From the NCBI GenBank assembly GCA_046540855.1, contig JBKHEJ010000001.1, positions 6,099-70,098 of the forward strand: a stretch of 64,000 bases of DNA, read 5' to 3'. The DNA is from Nitriliruptoraceae bacterium. Lineage in GTDB: Bacteria > Actinomycetota > Nitriliruptoria > Nitriliruptorales > Nitriliruptoraceae. Every line of letters starts with the position of its first letter. Position 1 is the first letter of the stretch. This document shows positions 8,945 through 41,634 of this stretch, piece after piece. The translations under genes and the position numbers were made by a program. The notes under the pieces were generated by a model. That model did no database searches and was not told the DNA's origin. It saw only the letters and a program-made list of their open reading frames with translations.

Positions 8945-8999
8945 GGTTCCGTCACCGTCCCCTCTGAGGTCCCGCCACCTCCCGTCCGGAAGGCCTGCC

Positions 9000-10328
9000 G
9001 TGTTCGACTCCCTCCTCGTCGCCAACCGGGGTGAGATCGCCTGCCGGGTCCTCAGCACCGCACGCGAGCTGGGCCTGCGCACGATCGCGGTGTACTCCGA
9101 GGCGGACGCTCGAGCCCGGCACGTCGAGCTCGCCGACGAGGCGGTGGCGATCGGCCCGGCCCCGGCGGCCGAGTCCTACCTCGACGTCGACGCCCTCGTC
9201 GGCGCGATCACCGCGACCTCGGCGGCCGCGGTCCACCCGGGCTACGGCTTCCTGTCGGAGAACGCCGGCTTCGCCCGGGCCGTCGAGGCGGCCGGCGCGG
9301 TCTGGGTCGGCCCTCGGCCTGAGACCATCGAGGCGGTCGGGGACAAGCGGGCGGCGCGTGAGGTGATGGCCGAGGCCGGGGTGCCCGTCAACGGCGGTGG
9401 TGCCGTCGAGGACCCCGAGGGGGCGCTCGCGATCGCCGACCGCATCGGCTTCCCCGTCATGGTCAAGGCCGCCGCCGGCGGCGGCGGGATCGGGATGCGC
9501 ATCGTGGACGATCGCGACGCGCTGGTCGCGGCGATCCGAAGCACGAGCGACCAGGCGGCCCGGTTCTTCGGCGACGGCAGCATCCTGCTCGAGCGGTACC
9601 TGCCGAACGCCCGGCACGTCGAGCTGCAGGTGCTGGGGCTCGCCGACGGCCGCGTGGCCGTGCTCGGCGAGCGGGACTGCTCGGTCCAGCGCCGTTACCA
9701 GAAGGTCATCGAGGAGTCCCCGTCCCCGGGCGTGTCCCCGCAGCTGCGCGCCCGCATGATCGAGGCCATCCGCGCCGGCGCGGAGCACCTCGGCTACCGC
9801 AACGCGGGCACCTTCGAGTGCCTGGTCTCCGGCGACGACTTCGTGTTCCTCGAGGTCAACGCCCGCCTACAGGTCGAGCACCCGGTCACCGAGGCGGTCA
9901 CCGGACTGGACCTGGTCGCCGAGCAGCTGCGGATCGCCGCCGGCGAGCCGCCGGGCTTCGACCCCGGCGCGATCACCCCGCACGGCCACGCCATCGAGCT
10001 GCGCGTCTACGCCGAGGACGGCAGGCGGTTCCTGCCCCGGCCCGGGACGATCGCGGCCTACGAGGAGCCGACCGGCCCGGGTATCCGCATCGACAGCGGG
10101 TTCCGGGCCGGCGATGCGATCACACCCTTCTACGACCCGCTGATCGCGAAGCTCGTCGCCCACGGCGAGGACCGGGCGCAGGCGATCGAGCGCGCCCGCG
10201 CGGCCGTGGACGCCTACGTCATCGAGGGGCTGACCAGCAACCTCGACCTCCTCGCCGAGGTGCTCGACGACCCGGGCTTCCGCACCGGCAACTACGACAC
10301 GGGCATCGTCGCGCGCCTGCGCGCCTGA
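9000..10328 (+). CDS. biotin carboxylase (acyl-CoA carboxylase alpha, without fused BCCP domain)
   Basis: VFDSLLVANRGEIACRV...HPGYGFLSEN...MVKAAAGGGGIGMR...EVNARLQVEHPVTE. 442 aa. Confidence 0.92.
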   Translation: MFDSLLVANRGEIACRVLSTARELGLRTIAVYSEADARARHVELADEAVAIGPAPAAESYLDVDALVGAITATSAAAVHPGYGFLSENAGFARAVEAAGAVWVGPRPETIEAVGDKRAAREVMAEAGVPVNGGGAVEDPEGALAIADRIGFPVMVKAAAGGGGIGMRIVDDRDALVAAIRSTSDQAARFFGDGSILLERYLPNARHVELQVLGLADGRVAVLGERDCSVQRRYQKVIEESPSPGVSPQLRARMIEAIRAGAEHLGYRNAGTFECLVSGDDFVFLEVNARLQVEHPVTEAVTGLDLVAEQLRIAAGEPPGFDPGAITPHGHAIELRVYAEDGRRFLPRPGTIAAYEEPTGPGIRIDSGFRAGDAITPFYDPLIAKLVAHGEDRAQAIERARAAVDAYVIEGLTSNLDLLAEVLDDPGFRTGNYDTGIVARLRA

Positions 10329-10431
10329 GCGCGCCCGGTCCGATGGTGCCCCGACCCCCAGACAGCCACGCAGCACCCCCGCGCCTGCCGCCTACCGGCG
10401 GAGCCGGACCCACCCCTTCCAGGAGCGAGCC

Positions 10432-10641
10432 ATGACCGAGATGCGCGCCGAGATGGCGGCCAACGTGTGGAAGATCGTCGTCGCCGACGGCGACGCGGTC
10501 GCCGCGGGCGACACCCTCGTCATCCTCGAGTCGATGAAGATGGAGATCCCCGTCGAGGCCGAGGCCGCCGGGCTGGTCACCCTCGCCGTCGAGGAGGGCC
10601 AGGCCATCGACGAGGACGACCTCATCGCGACGATCCAGTGA
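10432..10641 (+). CDS. stand-alone biotin carboxyl carrier protein (biotinyl domain only)
   Basis: 69 aa, ...GDTLVILESMKMEIPVEA... with an MKM biotinylation motif (Lys codon 10537-10539). Confidence 0.85.
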   Translation: MTEMRAEMAANVWKIVVADGDAVAAGDTLVILESMKMEIPVEAEAAGLVTLAVEEGQAIDEDDLIATIQ

Positions 10642-10854
10642 GCGGTGCCACCCAGGACCTGCCGCCGCTGTCCGCCGACCAGTTGCTGGCGGCTACGCCG
10701 CATCAGCGGGCTAGTGCCCGACCGCCGCTGCCACGGCGACGCGGTCGCGGACGGCGTTGAGATCAGCGTGGCAGCCCACAGATGGTTCCCCGACCTGCGG
10801 ACCACCTCGATCTGCGACGGTGGCCGCAGCCCCCTCGTCGCGGCCGGGCCGTGA
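10638..10854 (+). pseudogene. decayed 5-prime relic of an S9 peptidase gene (paralog of 39787..41634)
   Basis: GTG overlapping the BCCP stop, as at 39787. VSGATQDLPPLSADQLLAATP matches VSTADVSPPLSIDQLLAATP. In another frame, RWFPDL..DGGRSPL matches ELWAFPVDGGAPERL. Premature stops, no long ORF. Confidence 0.55.
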
Positions 10855-11112
10855 GTTGCACGGGGCCGGTGCCGTTGTGTGAAGCGAACCGACGCCCCAA
10901 CCGTCGAGTCGCTTCAGACGATCCGTACGGCCGTCGAGTGGTGAGGTGGAGGCACCGTGGTGGTGCGTTGAGTGAGCAGGGCGTCACGCATGGTCGGGGC
11001 TGCCGATGCCGGGCATCGACCGGACGGCACCTCGGTCACCCGGATCGGGGCGGCACCATCGCTGAAGCCGGGCATTGTCGGGTCCGAGCCGGCTCGCTAG
11101 CCTCTCAGCGCG

Positions 11113-11132
11113 GCGAACGAGCGATCGTTCGC
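11113..11132. promoter_or_regulatory. operator-like palindrome site 4 (GCGAACGAGCGATCGTTCGC, perfect 8-bp arms)
   Basis: Follows a TAGCCT box; 120 nt upstream of the DUF885 start. Confidence 0.6.
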
Positions 11133-11254
11133 AACGAGACGGCGTCGTGACCGCGCGGAGGAACCGGTTGCGGGGAAGCCGCCCAGCACAGGCTGGCCTG
11201 TTGGCGCGGGTCGGATCCCGAAGCAGGCGTCAGCCGCAGGAGGAGGGTTGATCC

Positions 11255-12928
11255 ATGCCAGAGCTCGCGAAGGTCATCGACGATTACCTGGAAGCCACCT
11301 TCACCCTCGACCCGGTGGCCGCGAGCGACCTCGGGGTGCACGACCACGACCACGAGCTCGGCGTGTTCGATGCGGACCGTATGGCCGAACACCGCGACCA
11401 CCTCGTCGCCACCATCGCAGCCCTGCGTGCCATCGACCCCGCAGGCCTCTCCCAGCTCGAGGCGCTCGATCACACGATCGCTCTCAGCGAGGCCGAGGTG
11501 GACCTTCGTCGGCACGATGACCAGCGGGTGTGGGAACGCGCCCCCTACTGGTACGCGGAGCGGCTCGGCGACGCTCTCTCCACCCTGATGACCCGGACCT
11601 CGACCCCGCTCGAGGCCCGTGGGGAGGCGATGCGGGCTCGGTTGCGGGCGACGCCTCGGTACCTAGCGACGGCGTTGGCGACCCTCTCTGACGCGACGCC
11701 CGAGGTGTACGTCGGCATGGGGCGCACGGCCGCCCGCGGGATGCAGGAGTTCCTCGCCGACGCCGTGCCTGCCTTCGCGGCTCAGCTGCCCGATCCACTG
11801 GCCGCCGAGATCGCAGCCGACAGCGCCGCAGCCGGAGCTGCGCTGGAGCGTTTCGACCGGGGGCTCGAGGATCTGGGAGCGCGCGCGGCGGGGGAGTACC
11901 GCGCGGGTGCGGCGCACGTGGACTTCCTGCTCGAGACCTACCACCGCGTCGAGATGGACCACGACGAGCTCTACGCTTGGGGGCGTGAGGCGGTCGATCG
12001 CGATCGCGCGGCGCTGGAAGCGTTGGCTGCCGAACTGGATCCCACGTCATCGTGGATGGAGCAGATCGCACGGGTCAAGGACCATCACCCCGCTCCGGAA
12101 GCCTTCGTGACCGCCTACGGCGATGAGATGGCGCTCGCTCGGGAGCACTGCATCGAGAAGGACCTGATCACCATCCCCGATGGCGAGGTGTGCCGGATGC
12201 GTTGGTTGCCCGCCTATCTGCGGGCCAGCCTCCCCATCGCGGTCATGGCGACCACGCCGCCCTTCGAGCCTGGACTCGAGAGCGAGTGGCTGATCACCCC
12301 GCTGGATCCGGATGCGCCGCAGGAGCGCCAGCGTCAGCACATGCGAGACAACTGCTACGCGTTCTGCCGGTCCATAGCGGGTCATGAGATCTACCCGGGA
12401 CACCACCTCCAGAAGGTGCACCACAAGCTGGCCACGGCGGCATCACCGATCCGCCGCTACACCTCCAGCCCGCTCTTCGTCGAGGGCTGGGGCCTGTACA
12501 CCGAGGACCTCCTGACCGAGACCGGGCTGCTGGCGGAACCCGACGTTCGCCTGTTCAAGCTGCGCAACGCTCTGTGGCGTTCGGCCCGGGTGGTGGTGGA
12601 CACCGGGCTGCACACCCGCGGCATGAACGTGCGGGAGGCTGCGGACGTACTGGAGCGGGAGGTGTGCCTCGATCGTCACATGGCCGAGGGCGAGATCATG
12701 CGCTATGTGCGGCACGACAACCCCACCTATCCATCGTCCTACCTGTTGGGACGGACCGCGATCCACGAGCTAAGGCAGCGGGCGATCCCCGGGAAGTCGG
12801 TCGGTCCAGACCTCAAGGCCTTCCACGACAAACTGCTCTCCTACGGCTCGATCCCCGTCGCGCTGATCGCGGAACAGTTCGCTCTGGACGGGCTGATCCC
12901 TCCCGCCACGGGCACTCTGCCGGGCTGA
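11255..12928 (+). CDS. DUF885 family protein (putative metallopeptidase)
   Basis: RBS GGAGGAGGG. 557 aa. HEIYPGHH motif at 12383-12406. Confidence 0.8.
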   Translation: MPELAKVIDDYLEATFTLDPVAASDLGVHDHDHELGVFDADRMAEHRDHLVATIAALRAIDPAGLSQLEALDHTIALSEAEVDLRRHDDQRVWERAPYWYAERLGDALSTLMTRTSTPLEARGEAMRARLRATPRYLATALATLSDATPEVYVGMGRTAARGMQEFLADAVPAFAAQLPDPLAAEIAADSAAAGAALERFDRGLEDLGARAAGEYRAGAAHVDFLLETYHRVEMDHDELYAWGREAVDRDRAALEALAAELDPTSSWMEQIARVKDHHPAPEAFVTAYGDEMALAREHCIEKDLITIPDGEVCRMRWLPAYLRASLPIAVMATTPPFEPGLESEWLITPLDPDAPQERQRQHMRDNCYAFCRSIAGHEIYPGHHLQKVHHKLATAASPIRRYTSSPLFVEGWGLYTEDLLTETGLLAEPDVRLFKLRNALWRSARVVVDTGLHTRGMNVREAADVLEREVCLDRHMAEGEIMRYVRHDNPTYPSSYLLGRTAIHELRQRAIPGKSVGPDLKAFHDKLLSYGSIPVALIAEQFALDGLIPPATGTLPG

Positions 12929-13550
12929 TGAGCGCCCAGGCCCTTGTCGCTTGGCCTGCGGACGCTCGCCAGGGTGCTGGTGGTCGGCAGCTGAGTTGGG
13001 ATCCACCCCGCTCTGCCTCGGTCGGTTCGCTTGGCGGGGTGGTGCCGTGCCGGACGTCGTGATGACGTGCGTGGGGGTGCTGCGCAACGCACCGATCACG
13101 GAGATGGAGGACGACGACCTCGACGAGGTGGTCGGAGTCCACCTCGCCGGCACCTTCAAGGTGGTCCGGGCAGCGGTACCCCACCTACGGGGAGGCTCGT
13201 CGATCGTGACGGTGTCCTCGGGCGCCGCCTGGGGCTCTACCCGGGGCCACAGCAACTACTCGGCGGCCAAGGCCTCGATCCCCGGCCTCACCCGTGCCCT
13301 GGCACTCGGGTTGGCGCCACACACCCGGGTGAACGCCGTAGCGCCCGGAGCCGTCGAGAGCCGTATGACCCGCCAGACCGCGGCGCAACTGGGCATGGAC
13401 ATGGAGACCTACCGGCAACGGATCGCTGCGCAGGTGCCCCTCGCTCGGATCGGGCAGCCCGAGGACGTCGCCGACGTCATCCGCTTCCTCGCATCGTCGA
13501 TGGCGCGCTACGTCACCGGCCAGGTGATCAAGGTCGGCGGGGCACCGTGA
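12928..13550 (+). pseudogene. short-chain dehydrogenase/reductase fragment lacking the Rossmann N-terminus
   Basis: From about 13047: VGVLRNAPITEM...VTVSSGAAWGSTRGHSNYSAAKASI...NAVAPGAVES...GQPEDVADVIRFLAS (catalytic S/YxxxK present, no TGxxxGxG). An ATG at 12928 overlaps the upstream stop but is in another frame. Span is 623 nt, not a multiple of 3. Confidence 0.55.
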
Positions 13551-13697
13551 CCGGGCAGCTGGCGGGGGAGCAGTGCCGCCGCAGCAACCATCTCAGCCGG
13601 GGTCGTGAGGGTCCCTCGCGCCTCGATCCGGAACGGTGGTCGCATCAGAAGTCGAGGTTGCCCACCTCGCCGCGGGCTGCTTCAGTGCTCCCGGATA

Positions 13698-13711
13698 CGA
13701 ACGAGCGTTAG
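13698..13711. promoter_or_regulatory. operator-like palindrome site 5 (CGAACGAGCGTTAG)
   Basis: 1 mismatch to the consensus. The right arm forms a TTAGCT box; upstream of the amidohydrolase gene. Confidence 0.55.
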
Positions 13712-13805
13712 CTCACTGGCGAAGGGTGGGCCTGTCCGATGCCGGCCATCCTTGCGCCGGCCGAGCGGGAGTGAGAAGCGGCGGTCGGCCGCGGGAGGGC
13801 GCGAC

Positions 13806-14984
13806 GTGGTGGAACAGAGTTGGTACCTGCGGGGCGCACGCTGGTTGGACGTGGCGACCGGTGAGACCGCGCAGCGGGATATCGTCCTACGCGACGGTCG
13901 TATCGCGGCTGAGCCCGGTGATGCGACGGTGGTGGACGCATCCGGTCTCACCGCGCTCTTCGGGCTGTGGGACTGCCACACCCACCCGGGTGGGATGATG
14001 TACGACCCGGACGCTGCCGGCTACTTCGAGGCCGCCCCCGAGCGCACGATCCGCGCGGGCGAGAACCTCCAGCAAGCGGCACGGATGGGGGTCACTGGTA
14101 CGCGGGCAGTCGACGAGGCGAACGAGATCGACCTGGCTTGGGGCCGTGCCTTCGCCGCGGGCACCCCGGTCGGTCCCAGGGTGCTCGGCGCGGGCCGCGG
14201 CATCCGGACCACCGCCGGACACGGGACGGCCTTCCCGCGGGTCTTCACGCAGCTCGATGCGGAGCTCGTGGTAGACGGCCCCACTCAGATGGCCCGGGCG
14301 GTGCGTCTGCTGGTCGAGCGGGGCGCGCACTGGGTCAAGATCATGCTCACCGGCGGCTTGTACAGCCCCCACGAGACCGTGGACGGGGTGCAGTTCACCG
14401 ACGAGGAACTGACGGCCCTGATGGAGGTGGCTCGGATCCGTGGGATCCCCGTCGCCGCCCACTGTGGTGGCTCCGAGGCTGCGGTGCGCTTCGCTGAGCT
14501 CGGAGGCCGCTCGGTGGAACACGGCTACGCCCTCGACGAGCGGGCGGCAGCTGCGATGGCCGCTCATGGCACCTGGTTCGTGCCGACGCTGTCGGTGACC
14601 CACGACCGGGAGTTCATCGAGGCCGAAGGGTGGCCCGCGCATGCCGCCAACCGGGCCTTCGAGACCGCGCCCGGGCATGCTGACGCGGTGCGGGTCTGCC
14701 AGGAGGCCGGGGTGCGCATCGCTGCGGGCGCCGACCTCAATCCGATCGGGCCACGGCTGCACCGCGAACTGGAGATGATGGAGCGTGCCGGCATGGATCG
14801 CCTCGCGGTCCTGGAGGCGGCAACCGTGGGAGGGCGGGCACTGAACGGCTTCGGGGACGACACGCTGCCCGAGGCCGGCGGGATCGGCGATCTCGTCCTG
14901 GTCGAGGGTGACCCACTGGACGATCTCGCGGTGCTCCGCACGCCCCGGATGGTCTTCGCTCACGGACGCCGGCTGGTCGCGTGA
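13806..14984 (+). CDS. amidohydrolase family protein (metal-dependent, COG1228-like)
   Basis: GTG 13806 after GGGAGGG. ...LWDCHTHPGG (HxH)...HWVKIMLTGG...PVAAHCGG...AAGADLNP. Paralog of 43614..44825. Confidence 0.85.
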   Translation: MVEQSWYLRGARWLDVATGETAQRDIVLRDGRIAAEPGDATVVDASGLTALFGLWDCHTHPGGMMYDPDAAGYFEAAPERTIRAGENLQQAARMGVTGTRAVDEANEIDLAWGRAFAAGTPVGPRVLGAGRGIRTTAGHGTAFPRVFTQLDAELVVDGPTQMARAVRLLVERGAHWVKIMLTGGLYSPHETVDGVQFTDEELTALMEVARIRGIPVAAHCGGSEAAVRFAELGGRSVEHGYALDERAAAAMAAHGTWFVPTLSVTHDREFIEAEGWPAHAANRAFETAPGHADAVRVCQEAGVRIAAGADLNPIGPRLHRELEMMERAGMDRLAVLEAATVGGRALNGFGDDTLPEAGGIGDLVLVEGDPLDDLAVLRTPRMVFAHGRRLVA

Positions 14985-15090
14985 GCAGCCGAGCGCTCGC
15001 GCGTGGGCGCGCTCGCACGGTGGCCGGCGCCGGTCGAGGCGTGAAGCAACGCCGCGGTCTTGCCGTGGCAGTTACCTCGATAGTAGGCTA

Positions 15091-15106
15091 ACGAACGGTC
15101 GTTCGT
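15091..15106. promoter_or_regulatory. operator-like palindrome site 6 (ACGAACGGTCGTTCGT, perfect 7-bp arms)
   Basis: Starts 1 nt after TAGGCT (15084-15089); upstream of the binding-protein gene. Confidence 0.6.
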
Positions 15107-15212
15107 CCGTGTCGCCGGCGCGGGCGGGGGAGAGGGACACGAAGGCACGCTGGGAGCAGCGGAGGTGCGAGTACGCGCCGCCGTTCGCATGATCACCAAG
15201 GGAGCTGACTCG

Positions 15213-16961
15213 ATGAAGCAGCCTCAGGAACGCAAGATCCAGCGAGCGGCGCTACTGCTGCTGCTCGCGCTGGCCATGGTCGCCGCAGCCTGCGGGGAGG
15301 CCGAGGACACCACGTCCGCCGACGAGGGTGAGGACGTCGCCGAGGAGACCGAGGAAGGTGAGGAGGTCGAGGACGACGAGGGTGATGAGGAGGGTGGCGA
15401 CGAGGAGGAGGCAGCCGGTGATCGTGTCGATGGCGGCACGGTCATCTTCGGTGCCGAGCAGGAGCCGGCCATCCTCAACCCGTCGATCCAGGAGGGCATC
15501 CTGTTCGCGACCTCGGTGGTCGTCGCGCCCCAGCTCTACCCGTTGTGGCGGATCACGCCGGAGCTGGACTTCGAACCCCTGCTCCTCGACGGAGAGCCCG
15601 TCGTCGAGGAGGATCCCTTCCGCGTGACCTACACGCTGAAGGAGGACGCGGTGTGGAGCGACGGCACCCCGATCACCGCTCGTGACGTCGAGTTCACGTG
15701 GGAGCGCCGGGTCGACCCCGAGGTGGAGGTCGCGAACCGAACCGGTTACGACCAGGTCAGCGACGTCGAGATCGTGGACGACAAGACCATCACCTTCACC
15801 TTCGAGGAGGTCTACGCACCCTGGCGTCTGATGTTCTCCACCATCGACGGGGTGATCCTTCCGGCCCACATCCTCGAGGGTGAGGACCTGAACGAGGTGT
15901 GGCGGGACGATATCCCGGTCGCTTCCGGTCCGTTCATGTTCGAGGAGTGGAACCGCGGCGTGGACCTCACCCTGGTCAAGAACGAGAACTACTGGGGGAC
16001 CGAGCCGAGCCTGGACCGGATCGTCTTCCGGTTCCTCGAGGACTCCTCGACGCAGGTGCAGCAGTTGCGAGGTGGGGAGATCGACGTGCTCGCTCCGCAA
16101 CCGCAGATCGATCTCGTGGAGCAGATCGAGGCCATCGACGACGTCGTGCTGAACGCCGTCGCCGGTCCGAGCTGGGAGCACCTGAACCTGCAGGCGGACA
16201 AGCCGGAGCTCGCACCGCTGTTCGTCCGCCAGGCCATCGCCAAGGGCATCGACCGAGCAGCGCTCGTTGATGCGCTGATCGCGCCGATCCAGCCCGACGC
16301 GGAGCCTCTGGACAGCATCTTCTACCTGACCAACCAGCCGGAGTTCGAGCCGAACTGGTCGGATGCGCTGGCCTTCGACCCGGAGGCGGCCGAGCAGTTG
16401 CTCATCGACAACGGGTGCGAGCTCGGTGACGACGGCGTGTACGTCTGCGATGGTGTCCGCCTGTCGATCCCCTACGCGACCACGACGGGCAACGAGCGCC
16501 GGGAGCTGACCTTCGAGGTCCTTCAGGCGCAGCTCGCGGACATCGGCATCGAGCTGAGCGCGGACTTCTCGGAGGCCTCGGTCCTGTTCGGTACGCGCCT
16601 GTTCGAGCGGGACTTCAGCATCAGCGCGTGGGGTTGGACGGGCACTCCGGATCCCTTCAACACCATCTCACAGTGGGGCTGCACGGATGAGGACGCGGGT
16701 ACCGGTGGGCAGAACTTCACCGGGGTCTGCTCGGAGGAGGCCACCGAGCTCATGCGTGAGGCGAACCAGGAGATCGACCCGGGGCGCCGCACGGAGCTGT
16801 TCCAGGAGGCCGACGCCCTGCTGGCTGAGCTGGTCCCGGTGATCCCGCTCTACCAGACCCCGACGATCACGGCGTACAACACCCGGGTGGCCGGCGTGGA
16901 GACGAACCCGAGCTCGGTGGGTCCGACCTGGAACACCCAGGACTGGTACCTGACCGAGTGA
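15213..16961 (+). CDS. ABC transporter substrate-binding lipoprotein, family 5 (peptide/nickel, DppA/OppA-like)
   Basis: ATG 15213 after AAGGGAG. Signal MKQPQERKIQRAALLLLLALAMVAAAC, then an acidic linker. Alternative in-frame GTG at 15165. Confidence 0.88.
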   Translation: MKQPQERKIQRAALLLLLALAMVAAACGEAEDTTSADEGEDVAEETEEGEEVEDDEGDEEGGDEEEAAGDRVDGGTVIFGAEQEPAILNPSIQEGILFATSVVVAPQLYPLWRITPELDFEPLLLDGEPVVEEDPFRVTYTLKEDAVWSDGTPITARDVEFTWERRVDPEVEVANRTGYDQVSDVEIVDDKTITFTFEEVYAPWRLMFSTIDGVILPAHILEGEDLNEVWRDDIPVASGPFMFEEWNRGVDLTLVKNENYWGTEPSLDRIVFRFLEDSSTQVQQLRGGEIDVLAPQPQIDLVEQIEAIDDVVLNAVAGPSWEHLNLQADKPELAPLFVRQAIAKGIDRAALVDALIAPIQPDAEPLDSIFYLTNQPEFEPNWSDALAFDPEAAEQLLIDNGCELGDDGVYVCDGVRLSIPYATTTGNERRELTFEVLQAQLADIGIELSADFSEASVLFGTRLFERDFSISAWGWTGTPDPFNTISQWGCTDEDAGTGGQNFTGVCSEEATELMREANQEIDPGRRTELFQEADALLAELVPVIPLYQTPTITAYNTRVAGVETNPSSVGPTWNTQDWYLTE

Positions 16962-19032: not shown

Positions 19033-19037
19033 GCCGG

Positions 19038-32991: not shown

Positions 32992-34056
32992 TCAGCGGTC
33001 GAAGATCTCCCGGGGTTCTGCGTAGAAGCAGGCGGAGGGGTGACCGTGGTTGAACTCGTCGATCAGGCGGGGTTCTTCCTGGGCGCAGCGGTCCTCGGCC
33101 TTCCAGCAACGCGTGCGGAAGCGGCAGCCGGAGGGTGGGTTGGACGGCGAGGGGACATCACCCAGGAGCATGATGCGGTCGATCTTGTCCCGGTCGCGGG
33201 GGTCGGTGATGGGTGCGGCCGAGAGCAGGGCCTGGGTGTACGGGTGGGTGGGGTTGTTGAAGATCTCCTCGGTGTCGCCGAACTCGACGATCTTGCCGAG
33301 GTACATCACCGCGACCCGGTCGGAGATATGGCGGACCACGGACAGGTCGTGGGCGATGAAGAGGTATGCGAGGCCGAGGGCGTCCTGGAGTTCCTCGAGG
33401 AGGTTGATCACCTGCGCCTGGATGGAAACGTCCAGCGCGGAGACCGGTTCGTCGAGGACGAGGAGTTGCGGATCGAGTGCCAGGGCCCGAGCGATACCGA
33501 TGCGCTGTCGCTGCCCTCCGGAGAACTCGTGGGGGAACCGGTTGCCGTGTTCGGGATTGAGCCCCACCAGGCGCATGAGTTCCTTCACACGTTCGCGGCC
33601 ACCGTCCCGCCAGCGGCCGTAGATGCGCAGCGGTTCGGCGATGATCTCGTTGACCGAGATCCTCGGGTTGAGGGAGGCGTAGGGGTCCTGGAACACGATC
33701 TGGATCTCGCGGCGCATCTCGCGCATGGTGCGGTGCGACATGCTGGCCAGGTCGTGACCTTTGAAGAGGATCCGGCCGTCGGTGGGATCCAGCAGCCGCA
33801 CGATGCACCGGCCGGTGGTGGACTTCCCGCAGCCGGACTCCCCCACCAGTCCGACGGTCTCGCCGGCGTTGACCTCGAAGGAGACCCCATCGACGGCGTA
33901 CACCGATCCGTGCTGCCGGTTGAACACACCGCCCCGCAGCGGGAAGTGCTTGGTGAGGTTCTCCACCGTCAGGATGGTCTCTCCACGCGGGGCACGGTCA
34001 TGGAGCCCAGGGCCGACGGGCACGGGGTCGAGAGGCGTCGGTAGAGCAGCCATCAC
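32992..34056 (-). CDS. ABC transporter ATP-binding protein (DppF/OppF-like)
   Basis: Walker [13 protein letters not shown], signature [16 protein letters not shown]-terminal oligopeptide-type extension with Cys residues. Confidence 0.9.
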
Positions 34057-35105
34057 CCGGCCTCCCGTTCGTCAGCGTCGAGGTCCAGGCCGATCGCCGC
34101 CTCGATCCGCGCGATCTCCTCGGGTAGTTCGTCGTGGAAGTGGCAGGCGCTGGAACGCCCCTCGCCCAACGGCACCAGTTCCGGGACCTCCGTGCGGCAC
34201 ACCTCCCGGCCAGCCGACATCCGGCACCGCGGGTGGAACGCGCACCCCTTGGGCAGGTTGATCAACGACGGTGGCTGCCCAGGGATCGGCTCGAGGCGAT
34301 CCACCTGCCGGTCGGTACGCGGCAGCGAGGACAACAGCCCCAGGGTGTAGGGGTGGGAGGGGTTGTGGAAGATGTCCTCCACCGTGCCCGTCTCCACGAC
34401 CTTGCCGGCGTACATCACCACCACCCGGTCCGCCATCTCTGCGATGACGCCGAGGTCGTGGGTGATCAGGATCGTGCCGGCGTTGGTCTCCTGCTGCGCC
34501 CGGGCAAGCACGCTGAGCACCTGCGCCTGGATGGTCACATCGAGCGCCGTGGTGGGCTCATCGGCGATCAGGATCTTGGGCTGGTTGGCGATCGCCATCG
34601 CGATCATCGCCCGCTGTCGCATCCCCCCGGAGTACTCGTGCGGGTACTGGCCGAAGCGCACCGCGGCGTTCGGGACGCCCACCAGCTCCAACAGCTCCAC
34701 CGACCGGCGGCGCGCCTCCGCTTCGTCGACCGTGCTGTCGTGTGTGGTGATCGCCTCGGCGATCTGGGAACCGATCGTCAGCACCGGGTTCAGGGAGGTC
34801 ATCGGGTCCTGGAACACCATCGCGATGTCCCGACCCCGCACCTGCCGCAACTCCGCTTCCGACAGTTCCAACAGGTTGCGATCCTCCAGCAGGATCTCGC
34901 CGCTGGCGATACGCCCCGGCGGTTCCGGGATCAGCCGCAGGATCGACATGACGGTCACAGACTTCCCCGACCCCGACTCCCCGACCACGCCCACGGTCTC
35001 ACCGGGGTGGACGTCGTAGGACACCCCGTCCACCGCGTGCACCACACCATCCGGCGTGGAGAACTCCGTCACCAGGTCACGGATCGACAGAAGCGGTTCG
35101 GTCAC
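34053..35105 (-). CDS. ABC transporter ATP-binding protein (DppD/OppD-like)
   Basis: GTG 35105 after GGGGGTAA: [15 protein letters not shown]...[12 protein letters not shown]...[14 protein letters not shown]. The tracked ORF extension to 35489 looks non-coding. Confidence 0.88.
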
Positions 35106-35308
35106 GGCGTTACCCCCCTGTGTCGTCGTCGCTGGGCATGGGGCCGATCCGCGTGACCGAGCGCACCGGCGCCTGCCTGCCGCTTCGGGCCGGTCGTCGG
35201 CCTCCGCATGCTCGGTCTCGCATCCTCCACCTGCCCCCGGGCAACGTTCCGGACCGGTGATCGCTGCATGTCGCCTGCGCCGGTCGGGGTTCCCTGCTTC
35301 GTCCGTAC

Positions 35309-35328
35309 GCGAACAATCGCTCGTTCGC
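35309..35328. promoter_or_regulatory. operator-like palindrome site 9 (GCGAACAATCGCTCGTTCGC)
   Basis: On the minus strand it lies a few nt after a TAGGGT box (about 35337-35342); roughly 200 nt upstream of the ATPase start. Confidence 0.55.
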
Positions 35329-35813
35329 GAGGGGGACCCTAGCCTTCCTCGGCGCCCTGGTCCAAGAGGGATGGCGTCGCGCGCCGGCGAGGTGGGGGCA
35401 CCGGAGACGTGCGGCGCCTGCGGGGCTGGCCGGTCAGGCTCGAGCTGTTCCCGGCATCCGCGCACCTCGTCGGCCGCGACCCGGCCCACCTCAGCCGCGA
35501 CGACGTCGTCCTAGCGGACTGCGGTGCGGACGGAGCCGCTCGGTCGCCCGGAGCGGGTAGGGAGCCAGGGTCGGTGGCGGGATCGTCACAGGCCCCTCCC
35601 GAAGCTGACGCGCAGCGGCACGGCCAGGGCAGCTCCGGTCGGGGTAGGGGCTTGTACGGACATGGTCATCGCTGGAACGGCTGGTGAGGTTGTTGGTGAA
35701 CGCTGCCGGTGGCCCGTCGCACAGGGTGTGTCACACCTCGCCTTCGGTCCCCCCGCTGGGGCCCGACCCCCTGGCTCCGGTGCGGTCCCTCGGTCGCGGT
35801 GTGCTGCCGGCCA

Positions 35814-36749
35814 TCACCCCCTGACGGAGAGCCGGGTGCGGCTGCGTGGGTCCAGCGCGTCGCGAAGGCCGTCCCCGACCAGGGTCCAGGCCAGGACCAT
35901 GAGGCTGATCGCGACACCGGCCGGAACCGAGATCCACCAGGCGACGCCCAGCAGCCGCTGCCCGTCACGAAGCACGGCTCCCCAACTCATCGCGGGGTCC
36001 GCGCCGACGCCGAGGAAGGCGAGCGACGCCTCGGAGAGCACGGCGAGTCCCGCGATGAAGGTGCCCTGTGCCAGGATGGGTGAGAGTGTCGATGGCAGCA
36101 CATGCCGGACGGCGATACGGACCGGACCGGCCCCGATCGCGCGCGCCGCCTCCACGTGCGGCATGGCGAGTGCGGTCAGCGTCGTGGCTCTGACCAGCCG
36201 AGCCACGACCGGCAGGTGACCGAGGATCAGCGCCAACAGCACGGTCGGCAGACCTGGACCGAGGCGCACCACGACGGCCAGAGCGAGCAGGACGGTGGGG
36301 AAGGCGAGGAGGCCGTCCATCGCGCGCATCAACGGGCCGTCGGCGCGTCGAACGCCGGCGGCCACCATACCGACCACCAGACCGAGCATCACCGTGGTCA
36401 CCCCGACCACGAGTGCCACGAGGAGCGAGGTCCGGGCGCCGAGCAGCAGCCGGACCAACACGTCGCGCCCCAGATCATCGGTGCCGAGCCAGTTGGTGGT
36501 GGACGGAGGTTGGAGTCTGCGCGCGGGCACAAGGGTCTGGACGTCGTCGGCGAGCAGGGCCGGCCCGAGGATCGCTGCGAGGGTCAGGAGGGCGAGCAGG
36601 ACGAGTCCGGCTCGAGCCGTTCCCGAACGCCACGCCGCAGCCGTGACCGCTCGGGCGGTCACCCCGAGCTCCCAGGGCCTGCTCCATGGCGGTCGGAAGC
36701 GGTGCTCGAGCCCGACCGTGACCGTCGGGCTAGACGCGGACATGATCAC
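35814..36749 (-). CDS. ABC transporter permease (DppC/OppC-like)
   Basis: ...NWLGTDDLGRDVLVRLLLGARTS... 311 aa. Confidence 0.85.
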   Translation of the reverse strand: MIMSASSPTVTVGLEHRFRPPWSRPWELGVTARAVTAAAWRSGTARAGLVLLALLTLAAILGPALLADDVQTLVPARRLQPPSTTNWLGTDDLGRDVLVRLLLGARTSLLVALVVGVTTVMLGLVVGMVAAGVRRADGPLMRAMDGLLAFPTVLLALAVVVRLGPGLPTVLLALILGHLPVVARLVRATTLTALAMPHVEAARAIGAGPVRIAVRHVLPSTLSPILAQGTFIAGLAVLSEASLAFLGVGADPAMSWGAVLRDGQRLLGVAWWISVPAGVAISLMVLAWTLVGDGLRDALDPRSRTRLSVRG

Positions 36750-37680
36750 CCCGTGGATCCAGCAAGCTCGACACCAGATCGACCGTCAGGCTGACGAGCA
36801 CGTTCGCCACGGCTGCGAACAGGATGACCCCCTGGAGCACCAGAAGGTCGCGCCGCCCGATGCTGGTCGCTACCAGTTGGCCCATCCCCGGCAGGTTGAA
36901 CACCGTCTCGACGATCACCGCACCGGTGAGCAGATCGGCGAAGCTGCTGCCGAGCACGGCGGTCGTCGGTGCCAGACTCGGCCGCAGCTCGTGGCGCAGC
37001 AGAAGGCCGCGAGGTCGCACGCCACGCGCACGCGCCGCCCGCAGATGGTCCGCATCGAGGCCATCGAGCAGGCTGGCACGTACCACGCGGGCCGGCACAC
37101 CGGCCAGCGGCAGGCCGAGAGCCAGTGCGGGCAGTACCAGGTGGCGCAGGTGCGCGAGGGGATCCTCGCTCAGGGGCACCGCACCGGTGGCGGGCAGCCA
37201 CTCGAGCCGAACGGCGAACACCAGCACCAGGATCATCGCGAGGAAGAAGGAGGCGATGGAGGTCGCGCTCGTCGCTAACAGGGTGATGCCGCGGTCGGTC
37301 CAGGAGCCGGGTCGCCGTGATGCCCAGATGCCTGCAGGCAGCCCGACCATCACGGCCACCAGCAGTGCGCTCACGGCCAACTGGAGCGTCGGCAGCACGC
37401 GTTCGCCCACCAGGGCCGTCACCGGTCGGCCGTGATACACCGAGTTCCCGAGGTCGCCGCGGGAGACGTCAGCCAGCCAGGCGCCGAAGCGGGCGCCGAT
37501 CGGCTGATCGGCCTCGAGCTCCGCGCGTAACGCGTCGATCTGGGCTGGTGTCGCTTCCGGCCCGAGCATCACCGCAGCAGCGTCTCCTGGCAGACCGTGG
37601 ACCATCAGGAAGGCGAGGGTCGCGACCACGACCAGGGTGGGGATCACCGCGGCGATGCGTCGCACCAGCGCTGCGGTCAC
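36730..37680 (-). CDS. ABC transporter permease (DppB/OppB-like)
   Basis: MTAALVRRIAAVIPTLVVVATLAFLMVHGLPGD...RAARARGVRPRGLLLRHELRPSL. GTGA overlap with the upstream binding-protein gene. Confidence 0.85.
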   Translation of the reverse strand: MTAALVRRIAAVIPTLVVVATLAFLMVHGLPGDAAAVMLGPEATPAQIDALRAELEADQPIGARFGAWLADVSRGDLGNSVYHGRPVTALVGERVLPTLQLAVSALLVAVMVGLPAGIWASRRPGSWTDRGITLLATSATSIASFFLAMILVLVFAVRLEWLPATGAVPLSEDPLAHLRHLVLPALALGLPLAGVPARVVRASLLDGLDADHLRAARARGVRPRGLLLRHELRPSLAPTTAVLGSSFADLLTGAVIVETVFNLPGMGQLVATSIGRRDLLVLQGVILFAAVANVLVSLTVDLVSSLLDPRGDHVRV

Positions 37681-39326
37681 CGTGACAGCCAGACGGTGGA
37701 GAGATCGGGCTGGAGATCGGTGTCCTGCAGCCCGCGGAGCTCGCTGCGGTGGGCGACCACCCGGCGGATATCGCCGATCTTGATGCGTGGCACGTCCTCA
37801 TGGAACCGTTGCTGTACCGCCGCCCACAGCTCTTGACGGCTCGGGAGGTCGTCGACGGCGCGCAGCTGGTCGAGCAACGCTTCCTTCTCGGGGTCCTCCC
37901 ACCATCCCCCGGCCTGGGCGGTGAGGTTGCGCATGATCGGATCGGGTCGGAAGCTCGCCGAGGCGACGTAGAGCTCGTAGCGGCTCTCGTCGGACCGCCA
38001 CGACGACAGGGTGGCACCATCGACCACCTCGACCTCGACGGTGAACCCGACCTCGCGCAGCTGCTGGGCGATCACCAGGGAGGCGTTGTGCTCCACGGGC
38101 AGCTCCAGGGTCGTCAGGAGACGCAGCCGGGTACCCAGGGCGTCGGCTTCGGCGAGGAGCGCTCGGGCGCCCTCGGGGTCGCGGGGGTGGTAGTGCTCCG
38201 AGCCGGCCTCGCTGCTCCACAGGGCCGCGCCGGGCAGGAGGTCAGGGTCGAGCTCGTAGGCGCCCGTCCCGACCGCCGCTTGGAGGATGGCATCGTGGTC
38301 CAGCGCCCGTTGGATGGCCTGTCGGACACCCAGCGGCTCCAGGGCCGGTGCGCGGCGGTTCAGTACCAGGTTGAGCCAGACGTCCGCGGCCTCGAGCCGC
38401 GCGGTGATGTCCGGGTCGCGCTCGAGCACGGGAAGCTGGTCCGGGCTGACCGTCTCCAGCAGGTGGACATCGCCGGCGCGAAGCGCTGCGACCCGGGCGG
38501 CTTCGTCGGGCAGCGGGATGAACTCGAGCGCGGCAGCGTGGCGGGGCCGGTAGCCGGCGTAGCCGTCGGCCGGTCCAGGCGGTGGACGGTAGGTCTCCGC
38601 ACGCTCGAGCCGGATCTGGCGGCCTGGCTCCCACCCGTCGACCCGGTACGGGCCGGTGCCGATCGGTGCTGCGAGGCTCGTTGCGTCGGAGCGGTCGAGG
38701 ACGTGGGCAGGATGGATGGTGGCGGCCTGAAGCTGCCGGGTGAGGGACTGGGGGATGGTGCCGTAGGGGTGGTGCAGCTGCAGCCGTACGGTCAGTGGGT
38801 CCGGTGCCGAGAGTGCCTCCACCGCGTCGAGAAGCGCCGCTCCGAGGCCGGAGAGCTGCCCCCACCGCTCAAGCGAGGCGATGACGTCTGTCGCGGTCAG
38901 GGGTGTTCCGTCGTGGAACCGGATCCCGGGCCGGAGGGTGATCGTGTGGACGAGGTCATCGTCCGAGACGTGATGCTCGGCGGCGAGCAGGGGGACCGGT
39001 CGGTGCCGAGCATCGGAGGTGAACAGCGTCTCGTACACATGGCCGGTGATCAGCAGCACCAAGGTGTCCGTGGAGCGGTGAGGGTCGAGATGCGGGGGCT
39101 CCCCGCTCGTGCCGACGCGGATCGTGCCCTCAGGCGTGACCGCCTCGTCACGGTCCACCGTGCTCGCTGAGGTTGCGACCTGCCGCTGGCCCGGCTCCAG
39201 GAGCCCGGCCAGTATCGCGATGCCCCCACCGGTGGCTATCAGCAGGAGGAGCAGGGCTACGGTCGGCGCCCCCCGGCCGGTGCCTCGCTCAGCACCGATC
39301 CTGCGATGCGCGTACCGACCGATCAT
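37677..39326 (-). CDS. ABC transporter substrate-binding protein, family 5, N-terminal membrane anchor (no lipobox Cys)
   Basis: MIGRYAHRRIGAERGTGRGAPTVALLLLLIATGGGIAILAGLL...TIRVGTSGEPPHLDPHRSTD... 549 aa. Confidence 0.85.
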   Translation of the reverse strand: MIGRYAHRRIGAERGTGRGAPTVALLLLLIATGGGIAILAGLLEPGQRQVATSASTVDRDEAVTPEGTIRVGTSGEPPHLDPHRSTDTLVLLITGHVYETLFTSDARHRPVPLLAAEHHVSDDDLVHTITLRPGIRFHDGTPLTATDVIASLERWGQLSGLGAALLDAVEALSAPDPLTVRLQLHHPYGTIPQSLTRQLQAATIHPAHVLDRSDATSLAAPIGTGPYRVDGWEPGRQIRLERAETYRPPPGPADGYAGYRPRHAAALEFIPLPDEAARVAALRAGDVHLLETVSPDQLPVLERDPDITARLEAADVWLNLVLNRRAPALEPLGVRQAIQRALDHDAILQAAVGTGAYELDPDLLPGAALWSSEAGSEHYHPRDPEGARALLAEADALGTRLRLLTTLELPVEHNASLVIAQQLREVGFTVEVEVVDGATLSSWRSDESRYELYVASASFRPDPIMRNLTAQAGGWWEDPEKEALLDQLRAVDDLPSRQELWAAVQQRFHEDVPRIKIGDIRRVVAHRSELRGLQDTDLQPDLSTVWLSR

Positions 39327-39402
39327 CTCCGGGTCCGTTCCTTCGTCGTCGCGTTCAGAGCTGCAGGAGGGGTACCGACCGCTAGGGTAGAAGCACTCCG
39401 TA

Positions 39403-39416
39403 CGAACGCTTGCACG
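39403..39416. promoter_or_regulatory. operator-like palindrome site 10 (CGAACGCTTGCACG within GTACGAACGCTTGCACGTGTAC)
   Basis: 15 nt after TAGGGT (39383-39388). Divergent region between the binding-protein operon and the relic/S9 peptidase. Confidence 0.5.
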
Positions 39417-39429
39417 TGTACTTGCGCAT

Positions 39430-39790
39430 GGAGAGGCGCGCTGCTCGGGCGCTCACGACGGTGTACCCGAAGCGAGGAGGCCGCATGGCAACCGTCACGT
39501 CTGACCACGCCGCGCTCCGCCGGGGCGTGCCTGTCCTGCGGTTGCCCCGCACGGCCACGCCATCGAGCGGGCCCGAGCGGCTCAGCGCGCCTGGTCCGAC
39601 GGAACCTCCGCGCCTGCCGACCACCGGCGGAGCCGGACCCACCCCTTCCAGGAGCGAGCCATGACCGAGATGAGCGCCCAGATGGCGGAGGGAGACCCCC
39701 GTCGAGGCCGGGGCCGCCGGCACGGTCACCCTCGAGGTCAAGGAGGGCCAGGGCAGCGAGGAGGACGACCTCATGGCAACGATCCAGTGA
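39430..39790 (+). pseudogene. collapsed relic of biotin carboxylase plus BCCP genes (paralog of 9000..10641)
   Basis: 39545-39568 identical to 9976-9999. 39605-39688 matches 10376-10459 (79/84, includes RBS and ATG). 39691-39792 matches 10542-10643 at about 87 percent. The 82 nt encoding the MKM motif are replaced by 2 nt (frameshift). 39430-39540 only weakly resembles the carboxylase 5-prime end. Confidence 0.75.
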
Positions 39791-41634
39791 GCACCGCCGA
39801 CGTGAGCCCCCCGCTCTCGATCGACCAGCTGCTCGCGGCCACACCGCTCGCGGGTATCGAGCCGCCGGTGTGGACCCCTGACGGCGGGGCCGTGATCATC
39901 GCCTCGCCGCTGGGAGGTGCTACCGAGCTGTGGGCGTTCCCGGTCGACGGCGGCGCACCCGAGCGTCTGACGACCGGCATGGGCTCGGTCGGCCACCTCG
40001 CCTCGGCGCTGCCGCGGGTCTCCCCCGACGGCCGATGGTTGTCCTACCTCTCCGGTGACATCGGCGACACCGAGGTGTGGCTCCAGCCCTTCGACGGCGG
40101 ACCGGCGGTGCAGCTCACCCGGCTCGGCGCCAACATCACCTCGCTGGCCTGGGCGCCGGACGGCCGTTCCATGGTCGTGGCGGCCAACCGTTACGGCACC
40201 TACGACGTCTTCCACGTCGCCGTGCCGGACGGCACCGCGACCCGGCTGACCTCCGACGTCGCCTACGAGGTCCAGCCGACCCTCACCCCCGACGGTCGGC
40301 ACCTGCTCCATGTGCGCCTGGACGCGACCTGGACCGCACGGGACGTGCTCGTCACCCCGCTCGACGGGGGTGAGGAGCGTCTGCTGGTCCACGACGACCG
40401 CTGGTTCGACTACCAGTACGGCCGCTGGTTCGGCACGCCGGTGCTGTCCCCGGACGGCGGCACCGTGGTGTTCCGCTCCTACCGCTCCGACTGGCTGAAC
40501 CTGTGGGCCGTGCCCTTCGAGGGCGGCGAGCCCCGCCAGCTCGCCCCGGACGCGGCCGACCAGGACCAGGCGGCGTTCTCGCCGGATGGCCGCCGCCTCG
40601 TCTACACCTCCAACCGGGACGCGCGGGTCTCGCTCCACCTCCTCGACCTCGACGGCGGTGCGCCTCGCTCGCTGGTCGATCCCGGCGATGGGGTGTGCGC
40701 CTTCCCGGCGTTCTCGCCCGACGGGCGCTTCGTCGCCTTCACCCTGGCGACGGCGCACCACCCCGCCGACCTGCACGTCGTCGAGGTCGCCACCGGCGAG
40801 GTGACCCGGCTCACCCGGTCGGTGCCGCGCAGTTTCGAGGCGCGGACCGTGACGCCGGAGCGGGTGACCTACCCCGGCCACGACGGGCTCGAGATCCCCG
40901 GGTTCCTCTACCGACCGGAGTCGGTCGGCGTGACACCCAACGGCGCCGGGGTGGTCGTGGTCCACGGCGGGCCGACGATGCAGTGGTTCCCCGCCTACGA
41001 CGGCTACGCGCAGTTCCTCACGCTGCAGGGCTACACCCTGCTGCTGCCCAACATCCGCGGCAGCGCCGGGTACGGCCGGGCCTTCGAGGAGGCGAACGAT
41101 CGTGACTGGCTCGGCGGTGACCTGCAGGACGTGGTCGCCGGTGGCCAGGTACTCGCGGGCCTCGACAGCGTCGATGCGGACCGCCTCGCCGTCACGGGGC
41201 TGAGCTACGGCGGCATCATGTCGATGGGCGTGGCGAGCTTCACCCGCGGGGCGTTCCGCGCTGCGGCAAGCCTGTCCGGGTACGGCGACTTCCTGCACAT
41301 GATGGAGGAGCAGGAGTTCCGGCACCAGCAGTTGCTGCGCAAGGAGCTCGGCGACCCGGTGGAGGACGAGGCGATCTACCGGCGGGCCTCCTCGATCCTG
41401 AAGGTCAAGGACGCGACAACCCCGCTGCTGATCGTGCACGGGGAGGGTCGCTTCCCGGGCTCCGATGCCGGCCGGCGCTTCGCCGAGGCGATGCAGCGCG
41501 AGTACAAGGTCTTCCGGTACGTCGTCTACCCCGGTGAGCACTACTACGTGACGGGCCGGGCCAACGTGCGCGCGATGTGGCGCGAGGTGGACGACTTCTT
41601 CCGCACCTACCTCGACCTCGCGACGGATCGCTGA
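39787..41634 (+). CDS. S9 family serine peptidase (prolyl oligopeptidase/acylaminoacyl peptidase type) with N-terminal beta-propeller
   Basis: WD40/TolB-like repeats (SPDGRWL, APDGRSM, TPDGRHL, SPDGGTV, SPDGRRL, SPDGRFV), then GLSYGG nucleophile elbow and a C-terminal His. GTG 39787 overlaps the relic BCCP stop; the frame is also open from ATG 39661. Confidence 0.88.
   Translation: MSTADVSPPLSIDQLLAATPLAGIEPPVWTPDGGAVIIASPLGGATELWAFPVDGGAPERLTTGMGSVGHLASALPRVSPDGRWLSYLSGDIGDTEVWLQPFDGGPAVQLTRLGANITSLAWAPDGRSMVVAANRYGTYDVFHVAVPDGTATRLTSDVAYEVQPTLTPDGRHLLHVRLDATWTARDVLVTPLDGGEERLLVHDDRWFDYQYGRWFGTPVLSPDGGTVVFRSYRSDWLNLWAVPFEGGEPRQLAPDAADQDQAAFSPDGRRLVYTSNRDARVSLHLLDLDGGAPRSLVDPGDGVCAFPAFSPDGRFVAFTLATAHHPADLHVVEVATGEVTRLTRSVPRSFEARTVTPERVTYPGHDGLEIPGFLYRPESVGVTPNGAGVVVVHGGPTMQWFPAYDGYAQFLTLQGYTLLLPNIRGSAGYGRAFEEANDRDWLGGDLQDVVAGGQVLAGLDSVDADRLAVTGLSYGGIMSMGVASFTRGAFRAAASLSGYGDFLHMMEEQEFRHQQLLRKELGDPVEDEAIYRRASSILKVKDATTPLLIVHGEGRFPGSDAGRRFAEAMQREYKVFRYVVYPGEHYYVTGRANVRAMWREVDDFFRTYLDLATDR

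Follow-up and report, generated by a model that had tools for sequence, protein, structure and literature searches.

We analysed a 64,000-nt stretch of contig JBKHEJ010000001.1 of a Nitriliruptoraceae bacterium (the window; 71% GC), in which the genes for a biotin carboxylase (accC), a biotin carboxyl carrier protein (BCCP) and an S9 peptidase are divided between two loci, A and B, that bracket a block of 28.6 kb. Genes were assigned by Pfam matches of open reading frames (ORFs), with NCBIfam in addition for accC and BCCP, and RNAs were sought with Rfam. In keeping with what had been read from the bare sequence (the sequence-only reading), Pfam and NCBIfam agree that accC and a 69-residue BCCP are intact at locus A and the S9 gene at locus B. 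The relatives used for comparison, designated by L numbers, were metagenome-assembled genomes (MAGs) of Nitriliruptoraceae or Actinomycetota and metagenome contigs from soda lakes and brines, among them L002 (JBKHDS01), L005 (GCA_964494675.1), L008 (the SL_7KL_010 brine population), L025 (Ga0450804) and L023, an independent Logan assembly.

The following names are used for groups of genes (Table 1). U denotes the genes upstream of locus A, which encode an OYE-type oxidoreductase, TetR (5965-6564) and a MaoC dehydratase, and CT the carboxyltransferase gene. R comprises the genes for a luciferase-like monooxygenase (LLM), EthD and amidohydrolase 2; D...F a peptide ABC operon, RidA and an LLM gene called F; M the module that runs from DUF885 to an ATPase operon; T the genes for a solute-binding protein (SBP) and two permeases; and E is an M24 peptidase gene. 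A prime sign marks a relic fragment of the gene concerned (accC', BCCP', S9', F' and E').

Table 1. Features of the split operon and its surroundings (positions in the window).
Feature	Position	Strand	Basis and remarks
CT, first gene of ancestral operon	7328..8944	+	Pfam Carboxyl_trans, E 7e-139; collinear with L001, L006, L007
accC, intact biotin carboxylase, locus A	9000..10328	+	Pfam Biotin_carb_N, CPSase_L_D2, Biotin_carb_C; NCBIfam full-length
BCCP, 69 aa, intact, ESMKM biotinylation motif, locus A	10432..10641	+	NF004547, 94.7 bits (cutoff 75); alignment with relatives
S9' relic	10638..10730	+	GTG overlaps BCCP stop, then about 25-30 S9 5' codons; ORF stops at 10760; blastn reaches 10701
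Left-deletion filler, unassignable	10731..11060		No match to R-region proteins (window, relatives) or to any locus; no codon periodicity
Module M	11063..35345		Pfam; operator-bearing promoters at both bounds, 11114-11131 and 35310-35327
Second-deletion filler, unassignable	35346..35667		No match found
F' relic	35668..35811	+	Last ~140 nt of LLM gene; 3-nt and 1-nt insertions, frame-breaking
Module T, two ABC permeases and SBP	35814..39326	-	Pfam; order F-T-E in L008, next to F in L009, L026, L027
T-E intergenic region	39327..39484	+	Promoter-like TAGGGT; motif CCGTACGAACGCTTGCACG at 39398-39416; 82% identical to L008
E' relic	39485..39522	+	M24 start codon and ~12 codons; heads chimeric ORF ending at 39664, with ATGA overlap with BCCP' ATG
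accC' relic	39538..39603	+	accC 3' end with internal deletions; stop TGA changed to TCA
accC-BCCP spacer copy with ribosome-binding site, then BCCP'	39604..39790	+	ATG at 39661; MKM missing through an 80-nt net deletion at 39688
S9 peptidase, intact, locus B	39787..41634	+	Pfam Peptidase_S9
R (LLM, EthD, amidohydrolase 2) and D...F	41831..53239		Collinear with L005, L025, L024
Second, diverged E promoter copy, then intact M24 gene E	53265..54490	+	ATG at 53342

Complementary remnants at loci A and B

Comparison of locus A (8.5-11.3 kb) with locus B (39.0-42.0 kb) by blastn detected about 250 nt of accC 3', BCCP and S9 5' sequence twice in direct orientation, in two collinear matches (E 2e-35 and 8e-30), bearing out the direct repeat that had been proposed. 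The match with the higher E-value aligned 10375-10459 with 39604-39688 at 80/85 positions, one position longer than the pairing of 39605-39688 with 10376-10459 noted earlier, and includes an exact run of 50 nt (10394-10443 and 39623-39672) that spans the ribosome-binding site (RBS) and the ATG. The other match paired 10539-10701 with 39688-39847 at 78.5% identity, with 87% over the first 105 nt. Farther upstream, the 24-nt identity reported between 9976-9999 and 39545-39568 was exact (24/24) and lies inside a slightly longer stretch, 9969-9999 versus 39538-39568, with 28/31 matches. Two more short matches were found at locus B, one of 10185-10203 with ~39563-39582 (18/20) and one of 10311-10346 with 39567-39602 (29/36), which includes the accC stop codon. 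With these latter two, accC' is seen to be the 3' part of accC, collapsed through a number of internal deletions, of which one lies between two ATCGAGC repeats (HGHAIE/RARAA). A global alignment with cheap gaps over-fitted the sequence outside these robust blocks and was discarded, and the junction regions, compared with the loci by tblastx, yielded nothing but high-GC noise.

The BCCP of locus A matched PF00364 and scored above the cutoff of NF004547, and it contains the ESMKME motif. At locus B, a net deletion of 80 nt, as the sequence-only reading had seen, removed the equivalent of 10460-10538 of locus A (...ILESMKM, the biotinyl-lysine motif) and shifted the frame, and with the lysine motif deleted BCCP' is not a functional member of the biotinyl carriers. 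Residues 36-69 of BCCP could still be aligned with 39686-39787 by tblastn (E 8e-14). The 3' part of BCCP' differs at 13-14 nt, 11 of which alter an amino acid of the old frame, a substitution pattern that fits loss of BCCP function.

The S9 protein of locus B showed features of prolyl oligopeptidases, with a PF00326 match (E 2e-31), PD40 repeats of the N-terminal beta-propeller and the sequence GLSYGG (GxSxGG nucleophile elbow). At locus A, tblastn aligned S9 residues 8-28 with 10662-10730 (E 3e-5), and no S9 similarity was found past 10730. Local alignment of 10731-11254 with the remainder of S9 scored 17, a value reached by 29 of 100 shuffles (15.6 +/- 1.4), and a second S9 trace that had been read at 10780-10854 (RWFPDL..DGGRSPL) is consequently abandoned.

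At both loci the stop of BCCP and the start of S9 overlap in GTGA (10638-10641 at A and 39787-39790 at B). CT, accC, BCCP and S9 are uninterrupted in L001, L006 and L007, whose S9 proteins are 80, 81 and 85% identical in amino acids to that of the window (the L006 contig being 292 kb long). The BCCP of L001 and L007 has 69 residues, and that of L006 was called with 86. An NTGA overlap of the BCCP stop with the S9 start was present in 5/5 relatives examined, including L003, in which accC is not adjacent. Because relatives carry a contiguous operon with this overlap, the split in the window is a derived state, and the suggestion that the ancestral unit was translationally coupled is upheld.

The overlaps lie at 9980-9983 in L001, 9992-9995 in L003, 81-84 in L005, 10001-10004 in L006 and 3317-3320 in L007. 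The L005 contig, which has the closest S9 relative (87% amino acid identity), begins 80 nt before S9, within an intact-looking BCCP 3' end, and the break could reflect a repeat there. In L003 the neighbours of the BCCP-S9 pair are hydantoinase B, LLM and amidohydrolase genes instead of accC; this genome was considered as an outgroup for gene order and set aside as too rearranged (HydB-LLM-amidohydrolase-BCCP-S9). BCCP and S9 thus form a conserved pair of genes without an obvious functional reason, and a functional link between them is not known to have been described, the literature not having been searched in depth.

Identity between loci A and B was unequal along the repeat, being 54/57 (95%) in the accC-BCCP spacer, 83/96 (86%) in the BCCP 3' part and 43/61 (70%) in the S9 5' part. 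Against any relative the spacer was 60% identical or less, or could not be aligned, and is hence lineage-specific; this shared spacer argues that loci A and B are sisters. Gene trees of CT (7400-8944), accC and S9 with L001, L005, L006 and L007 conflicted, in that CT and accC placed the window with L006, and L001 with L007, whereas S9 placed the window with L005 and L007. Because these trees disagree, recombination among the lineages is common, and the conflict indicates exchange close to the BCCP/S9 boundary, even where the operon is intact.

Modules between the loci and the relics F' and E'

The block between the loci carries, in order, DUF885, a short-chain dehydrogenase/reductase, amidohydrolase 1, two SBPs, a gamma-glutamyltransferase (GGT), a 296-aa ORF (21304-22194) with no Pfam match, PNPOx, two BNR/sortilin genes, a second GGT, two permeases and two ATPases, and then T. 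The left end of M (DUF885, dehydrogenase/reductase and amidohydrolase 1) follows LLM-EthD(-x) in L001, L006, L020, L021 and L022. The promoter and operator upstream of DUF885 were kept in all seven lineages, and because of this conservation the native left edge of M can be placed near 11063. The right part of M (BNR, GGT, permeases and ATPases) adjoins D in L026 and L027, and both contigs continue with D-F-T; no orthologue of the D SBP was found on the L001 or L006 contigs. Module T is 86% identical (85-89%) to that of L008, though T is less conserved than D in L009 and L027.

On this synteny the block consists of native chromosomal modules, which relatives carry downstream of S9, and is not a foreign island. 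As had been noted from the sequence, no integrase or transposase was found among the Pfam matches of the block ORFs, nor was a recombinase domain, and the 64-kb window contained no tRNA and no Rfam RNA. The GC content and third-position GC (GC3) of the block were lower than those of the backbone (Mann-Whitney p 6e-5; GC3 of M 0.86 versus ~0.92). This is weak evidence for a foreign origin, since L006 shows a similar offset.

Downstream of S9 at locus B lie R, then a 214-aa gene, an SBP, two ATPases, two permeases, RidA and LLM F, and then E. The S9-R region is 91.7% identical in nucleotides to L002, a contig of a Nitriliruptoraceae MAG. The R-D and F-E joints of the window are matched collinearly by L005, L025 and L024 in single high-scoring segment pairs, and all blastn matches to relatives preserve relative strand. 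The intact F and E genes adjoin at 53.2-53.3 kb without T between them. Identity to L008, followed in a sliding profile, changed to the right of E with no clean step of the kind expected at a homologous crossover.

The doubling had been thought to concern the carboxylase-BCCP-S9 unit alone. Its copies are indeed complementary remnants, but the E'-accC' junction and F' show that the doubled stretch runs from the interior of accC to the 5' end of the M24 gene, over at least 14 kb, and the event also accounts for two further relics, F' and E'. Located at the left edge of T, F' is 83% identical (133/161) to the F gene of L008 and 66% (107/161) to that of the window, which itself matches L024 at 127/161 positions. 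The stretch 39308-39522 aligned with the T-E spacer and first E codons of L008 at 177/217 positions (82%), and E' begins with ATG GCA ACC GTC ACG, identical to L008 and unlike the window's own E. The motif CCGTACGAACGCTTGCACG occurs a second time, at 53288-53306, and accC' starts 15 nt after E'. The E'/E, F'/F and S9 5' pairs are ~66-72% identical.

Four scars, S9', F', E' and accC'/BCCP', thus lie at segment boundaries; there is one copy of every gene, and none of the segments is inverted. Because the end of a segment is joined to its start, the E'-accC' joint is the signature of a head-to-tail duplication; its breakpoint falls at ~39523-39537 and is eroded. The copies had been described as decayed. 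They are complementary mostly through truncation at breakpoints and deletion, and not through gradual decay. Junction A recurs in L023, where 3,515 nt match at 99.94%.

Other repeats in the window were observed. An exact stretch of 2,218 nt (22900-25117 and 26146-28363) is common to the tandem BNR/sortilin-like genes at 22862-26080 and at 26102-29281, between flanks of ~60-68% identity, which reflects either gene conversion or assembly collapse. The tandem SBP_bac_5 paralogues (15165-16961 and 17210-18997) have a period of 2,033 nt and are 73-88% identical, both the GGT genes (19038-20879 and 29312-31030) and the amidohydrolase genes (13605-14984 and 43230-44825) form further pairs of paralogues, and a distant second DUF885 paralogue (56155-57867) is found downstream of E beside further LLM genes (54316-56230). 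The region is rich in old duplications. The presence of T is polymorphic, F and E being adjacent without it in the window (53226-53342) and in L024 (~3996-4512), and T lying beside F in L008 (9832-13516), L009, L026 and L027.

A proposed rearrangement and its alternatives

The relics, the junctions and the gene order of relatives are observed, and we hold with about even confidence that the repeats are scars of a duplication-type rearrangement, which joined two versions of this neighbourhood and was followed by loss of redundant genes. The ancestral order would have been U-CT-accC-BCCP-S9-R-M-D-F-T-E. Its adjacencies are found as CT-accC-BCCP-S9 in L001, L006 and L007; LLM-EthD(-x)-DUF885 in L001, L006 and L020-L022; the right part of M followed by D, F and T in L026 and L027; D-F-T-E in L008; and D-F-T in L009. 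Version 2, from the interior of accC through BCCP-S9-R-D-F-E, would have been joined head-to-tail after about 12 codons of the E gene of version 1, producing the E'-accC' junction. Version 1 would then have lost S9...R, leaving S9', and D...F, leaving F', and the redundant accC' and BCCP' of version 2 would have decayed by small deletions. In the outcome, (S9R)(M)(DF)(T) would have become (M)(T)(S9R)(DF), no orientation would have changed, and M and T would lie between BCCP and S9.

Version 2 would have been free of M and T, like L005 and L024, and the other version would have carried both modules with L008-like alleles. Because version 2 matches relatives that have neither M nor T, while T and the F' and E' flanks carry L008-like alleles, recombination between related lineages is suggested, and the two versions probably came from related but distinct lineages and not from identical sister copies. 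From these relationships we infer in which order the events took place and where version 2 came from. Candidates for the formation of the joint would be tandem duplication with allelic replacement, homology-facilitated illegitimate recombination (HFIR; PMC3240628) and integration of a circle.

Several points weigh against this rearrangement. No contig shows the ancestral order in full, which was pieced together from several relatives, and relatives with an R-D joint (L003, L005 and L025) coexist with those that have R next to M, making the position of M in the immediate ancestor uncertain. About 330 nt are unexplained at each deletion junction; the two fillers (10731-11060 and 35346-35667) gave no match in relatives and only a trivial match to each other, and showed no coding periodicity, and so look non-coding. 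The unequal identity of the relics (95% in the spacer, 86% in BCCP 3', 70% in S9 5' and 66% for F'/F) means that the similarity of the accC'-BCCP part needs a separate explanation, which may be either gene conversion or a shared allele that served as homologous anchor (86-95% identity from accC' through the spacer to BCCP). The 2,218-nt tract of the BNR paralogues indicates that conversion, or assembly collapse, may take place within this block. The sequence CGCCGCCGGCG is found in both parents, in E (~53373-53384) and in accC (9933-9943), and the relic is too eroded for the breakpoint to be placed; the CCGCCGG microhomology in both parents proves nothing. Junction B has no support from an independent assembly: neither the S9 fusion nor the 615-aa S9, the chimeric E'::accC' ORF or the T SBP was hit in exact-sequence look-ups.

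The two mechanisms offered by the sequence-only reading, segmental duplication with reciprocal loss and recombination-mediated insertion, both come close to the evidence, the 28.6 kb being native modules and not an inserted entity. Taken as an event within one genome, the first would be a tandem duplication of ~45 kb, from the interior of accC to the 5' end of E, after which S9-R and D-F would be lost at random from copy 1 and M and T from copy 2, four losses in all, and accC'-BCCP would later be converted. One duplication with losses yields the exact permutation with relics in the expected places and orientation kept, and the 54/57 identity of the spacers and the conversion-like tract in the BNR paralogues agree with it. 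Yet F' is far closer to the F of L008 than to that of the window, E' has the start of L008's E and not of the window's own, and T is 85-89% identical to L008 although elsewhere less conserved than D. Furthermore, the R-D and F-E joints that deletion would have to create are already common to L005, L025 and L024, as are the 20 nt over which amidohydrolase 2 and the gene after it overlap. Because these joints are shared with relatives, such a duplication would be very old, and yet the spacer is 95% identical. With relic pairs so unequal in divergence (95% down to 66%), we consider a simple duplication within the genome unlikely.

The second mechanism would be a Campbell-type insertion, in which a circularised DNA of ~29 kb from a relative, carrying M and T with an accC'-BCCP-S9' anchor, entered the intact operon by a single homologous crossover. 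A left copy truncated at its 3' end, a right copy truncated at its 5' end, and direct anchor repeats around the block follow automatically; the backbone is collinear with relatives that have neither M nor T, the flanks of T are L008-like, and high identity is confined to the putative anchor. Such a circle must, however, already have held three odd junctions (S9'-filler-M, M-filler-F' and E'-accC'), and its formation implies prior loss from the donor of S9-R and D-F, which were unique there and whose loss would not be neutral without a duplicate. M also has no clear compositional foreignness (GC3 0.86 versus ~0.92, with the same trend in L006). We regard this insertion as distinctly improbable.

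There is a slim chance that the contig is an assembly chimera of two co-occurring related strains, loci A and B not being on one chromosome. It is 70,435 bp long and comes from a metagenome-type assembly in which alpha-type and beta-type alleles coexist, and the exact 2.2-kb repeat in the block could mislead an assembler. Against this, the junctions are truncated, indel-bearing pseudogene fragments beside unrelated sequence, which the joining of shared k-mers does not make; junction A was reproduced independently at 99.94%; and the two sets of relics are exactly complementary. A mobile element or genomic island between BCCP and S9 with target duplication is very improbable, for although direct repeats bracket a block of slightly lower GC, no integrase, transposase or recombinase domain, tRNA or Rfam RNA was found, the repeat is more than 250 nt of operon sequence and not a short target-site duplication, and in relatives the genes of the block have syntenic chromosomal counterparts. 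That two independent, anciently paralogous carboxylase-BCCP-S9 loci each lost one half can practically be dismissed: the S9 5' parts are only ~70% identical between A and B, but the lineage-specific spacer is shared at 54/57, relatives have a single contiguous locus, and accC' abuts a fragment of an unrelated gene.

S9 after the split, and comparison with known systems

The S9 gene of the relatives lacks its own RBS, and its start overlaps the stop of BCCP. The 80-nt deletion at locus B sets the BCCP' ATG at 39661 in frame with S9, giving an open fusion frame of 657 aa with the predicted peptide sequence MTEMSAQMAEGDPR..., and the start codon of E' heads a chimeric ORF of 59 codons whose stop overlaps this ATG (ATGA). 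The E promoter region, with an operator-like motif, is intact upstream of locus B. Searches for sigma-70 promoters and intrinsic terminators detected none at either locus, as expected for 71% GC. The arrangement suggests that S9-R is now probably driven from the M24 peptidase promoter through the retained RBS and ATG of BCCP. Only tentatively do we put the elements together as a tandem duplication with random loss of the mitochondrial kind, possibly seeded by a sister lineage, that left four legible scars and rewired S9 behind the M24 promoter as an N-terminally extended fusion. If this is true, S9 would have moved from a carboxylase operon to a peptide-catabolism regulon marked by the operator CGAACG-N6-CGTTCG.

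A palindromic 18-nt motif, CGAACGAGCGATyGTTCG, was found in the window with 15 strand matches, versus 0.23 expected, and precedes several operons (1999-2016, 11114-11131, 15088-15109, 22353-22370, 35310-35327, 41764-41781, 51732-51749 and 61097-61114). The seven lineages conserve it upstream of DUF885, where it follows a TAGGGT-like -10 element, and L026 and L027 conserve it before the ATPase operon of the right part of M. The motif is probably the operator of a regulon for peptide and amino-acid catabolism.

The window shows a translationally coupled operon that was split, and a 29-kb set of peptide-uptake genes that was repositioned, without a mobile element. Pseudogene fragments mark all of the breakpoints, and comparison with relatives allows the ancestral state to be reconstructed. 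The case illustrates how duplication with complementary loss can reorder bacterial genes while preserving their orientation, how recombination between lineages is able to supply the second copy, and how capture of a promoter and RBS is able to rescue a gene severed from its operon. In annotation, accC', BCCP', S9', F' and E' should be treated as pseudogene fragments, and the start of S9 needs care.

As in other acyl-CoA carboxylase operons with separate genes for CT, biotin carboxylase and a small BCCP, locus A encodes all three, the biotinyl-lysine motif included; in contrast to these, the BCCP stop overlaps the S9 start in this clade, even in L003. The hallmarks of mobile elements are missing, as there is neither an integrase, transposase or recombinase gene nor a tRNA/att site or short target-site duplication. 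Campbell-type insertion and HFIR, as defined in PMC3240628, share with the window a homologous anchor and one putative illegitimate joint, and here too the anchor is repeated directly on either side of the added DNA, with a left copy truncated at the 3' end and a right copy at the 5' end. HFIR as described integrates small linear DNA fragments, whereas the DNA concerned here measures tens of kilobases and is itself a version of the same neighbourhood.

Tandem duplication-random loss, a model of gene-order change, has been described for metazoan mitochondrial genomes (PMC5745709, PMC4223735, PMC3283314). As in that model, a segment is doubled head-to-tail, each gene loses one of its two copies, orientation stays as it was, remnants mark the losses and the resulting order is interleaved. 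The order in the window can be derived from the composite ancestor by one doubling with losses, the end-to-start joint is present as E'-accC', and the remnants lie at the expected positions. Unlike the mitochondrial cases, the event concerns tens of kilobases of a bacterial chromosome. The remnant pairs are of unequal divergence, some have alleles of another lineage and they are not each other's closest relatives (F' is nearer to L008), and the second copy may stem from a relative rather than from the sister strand. The window is an informative but ordinary rearrangement produced by a known kind of process, and it fits within the current understanding of gene-order change.

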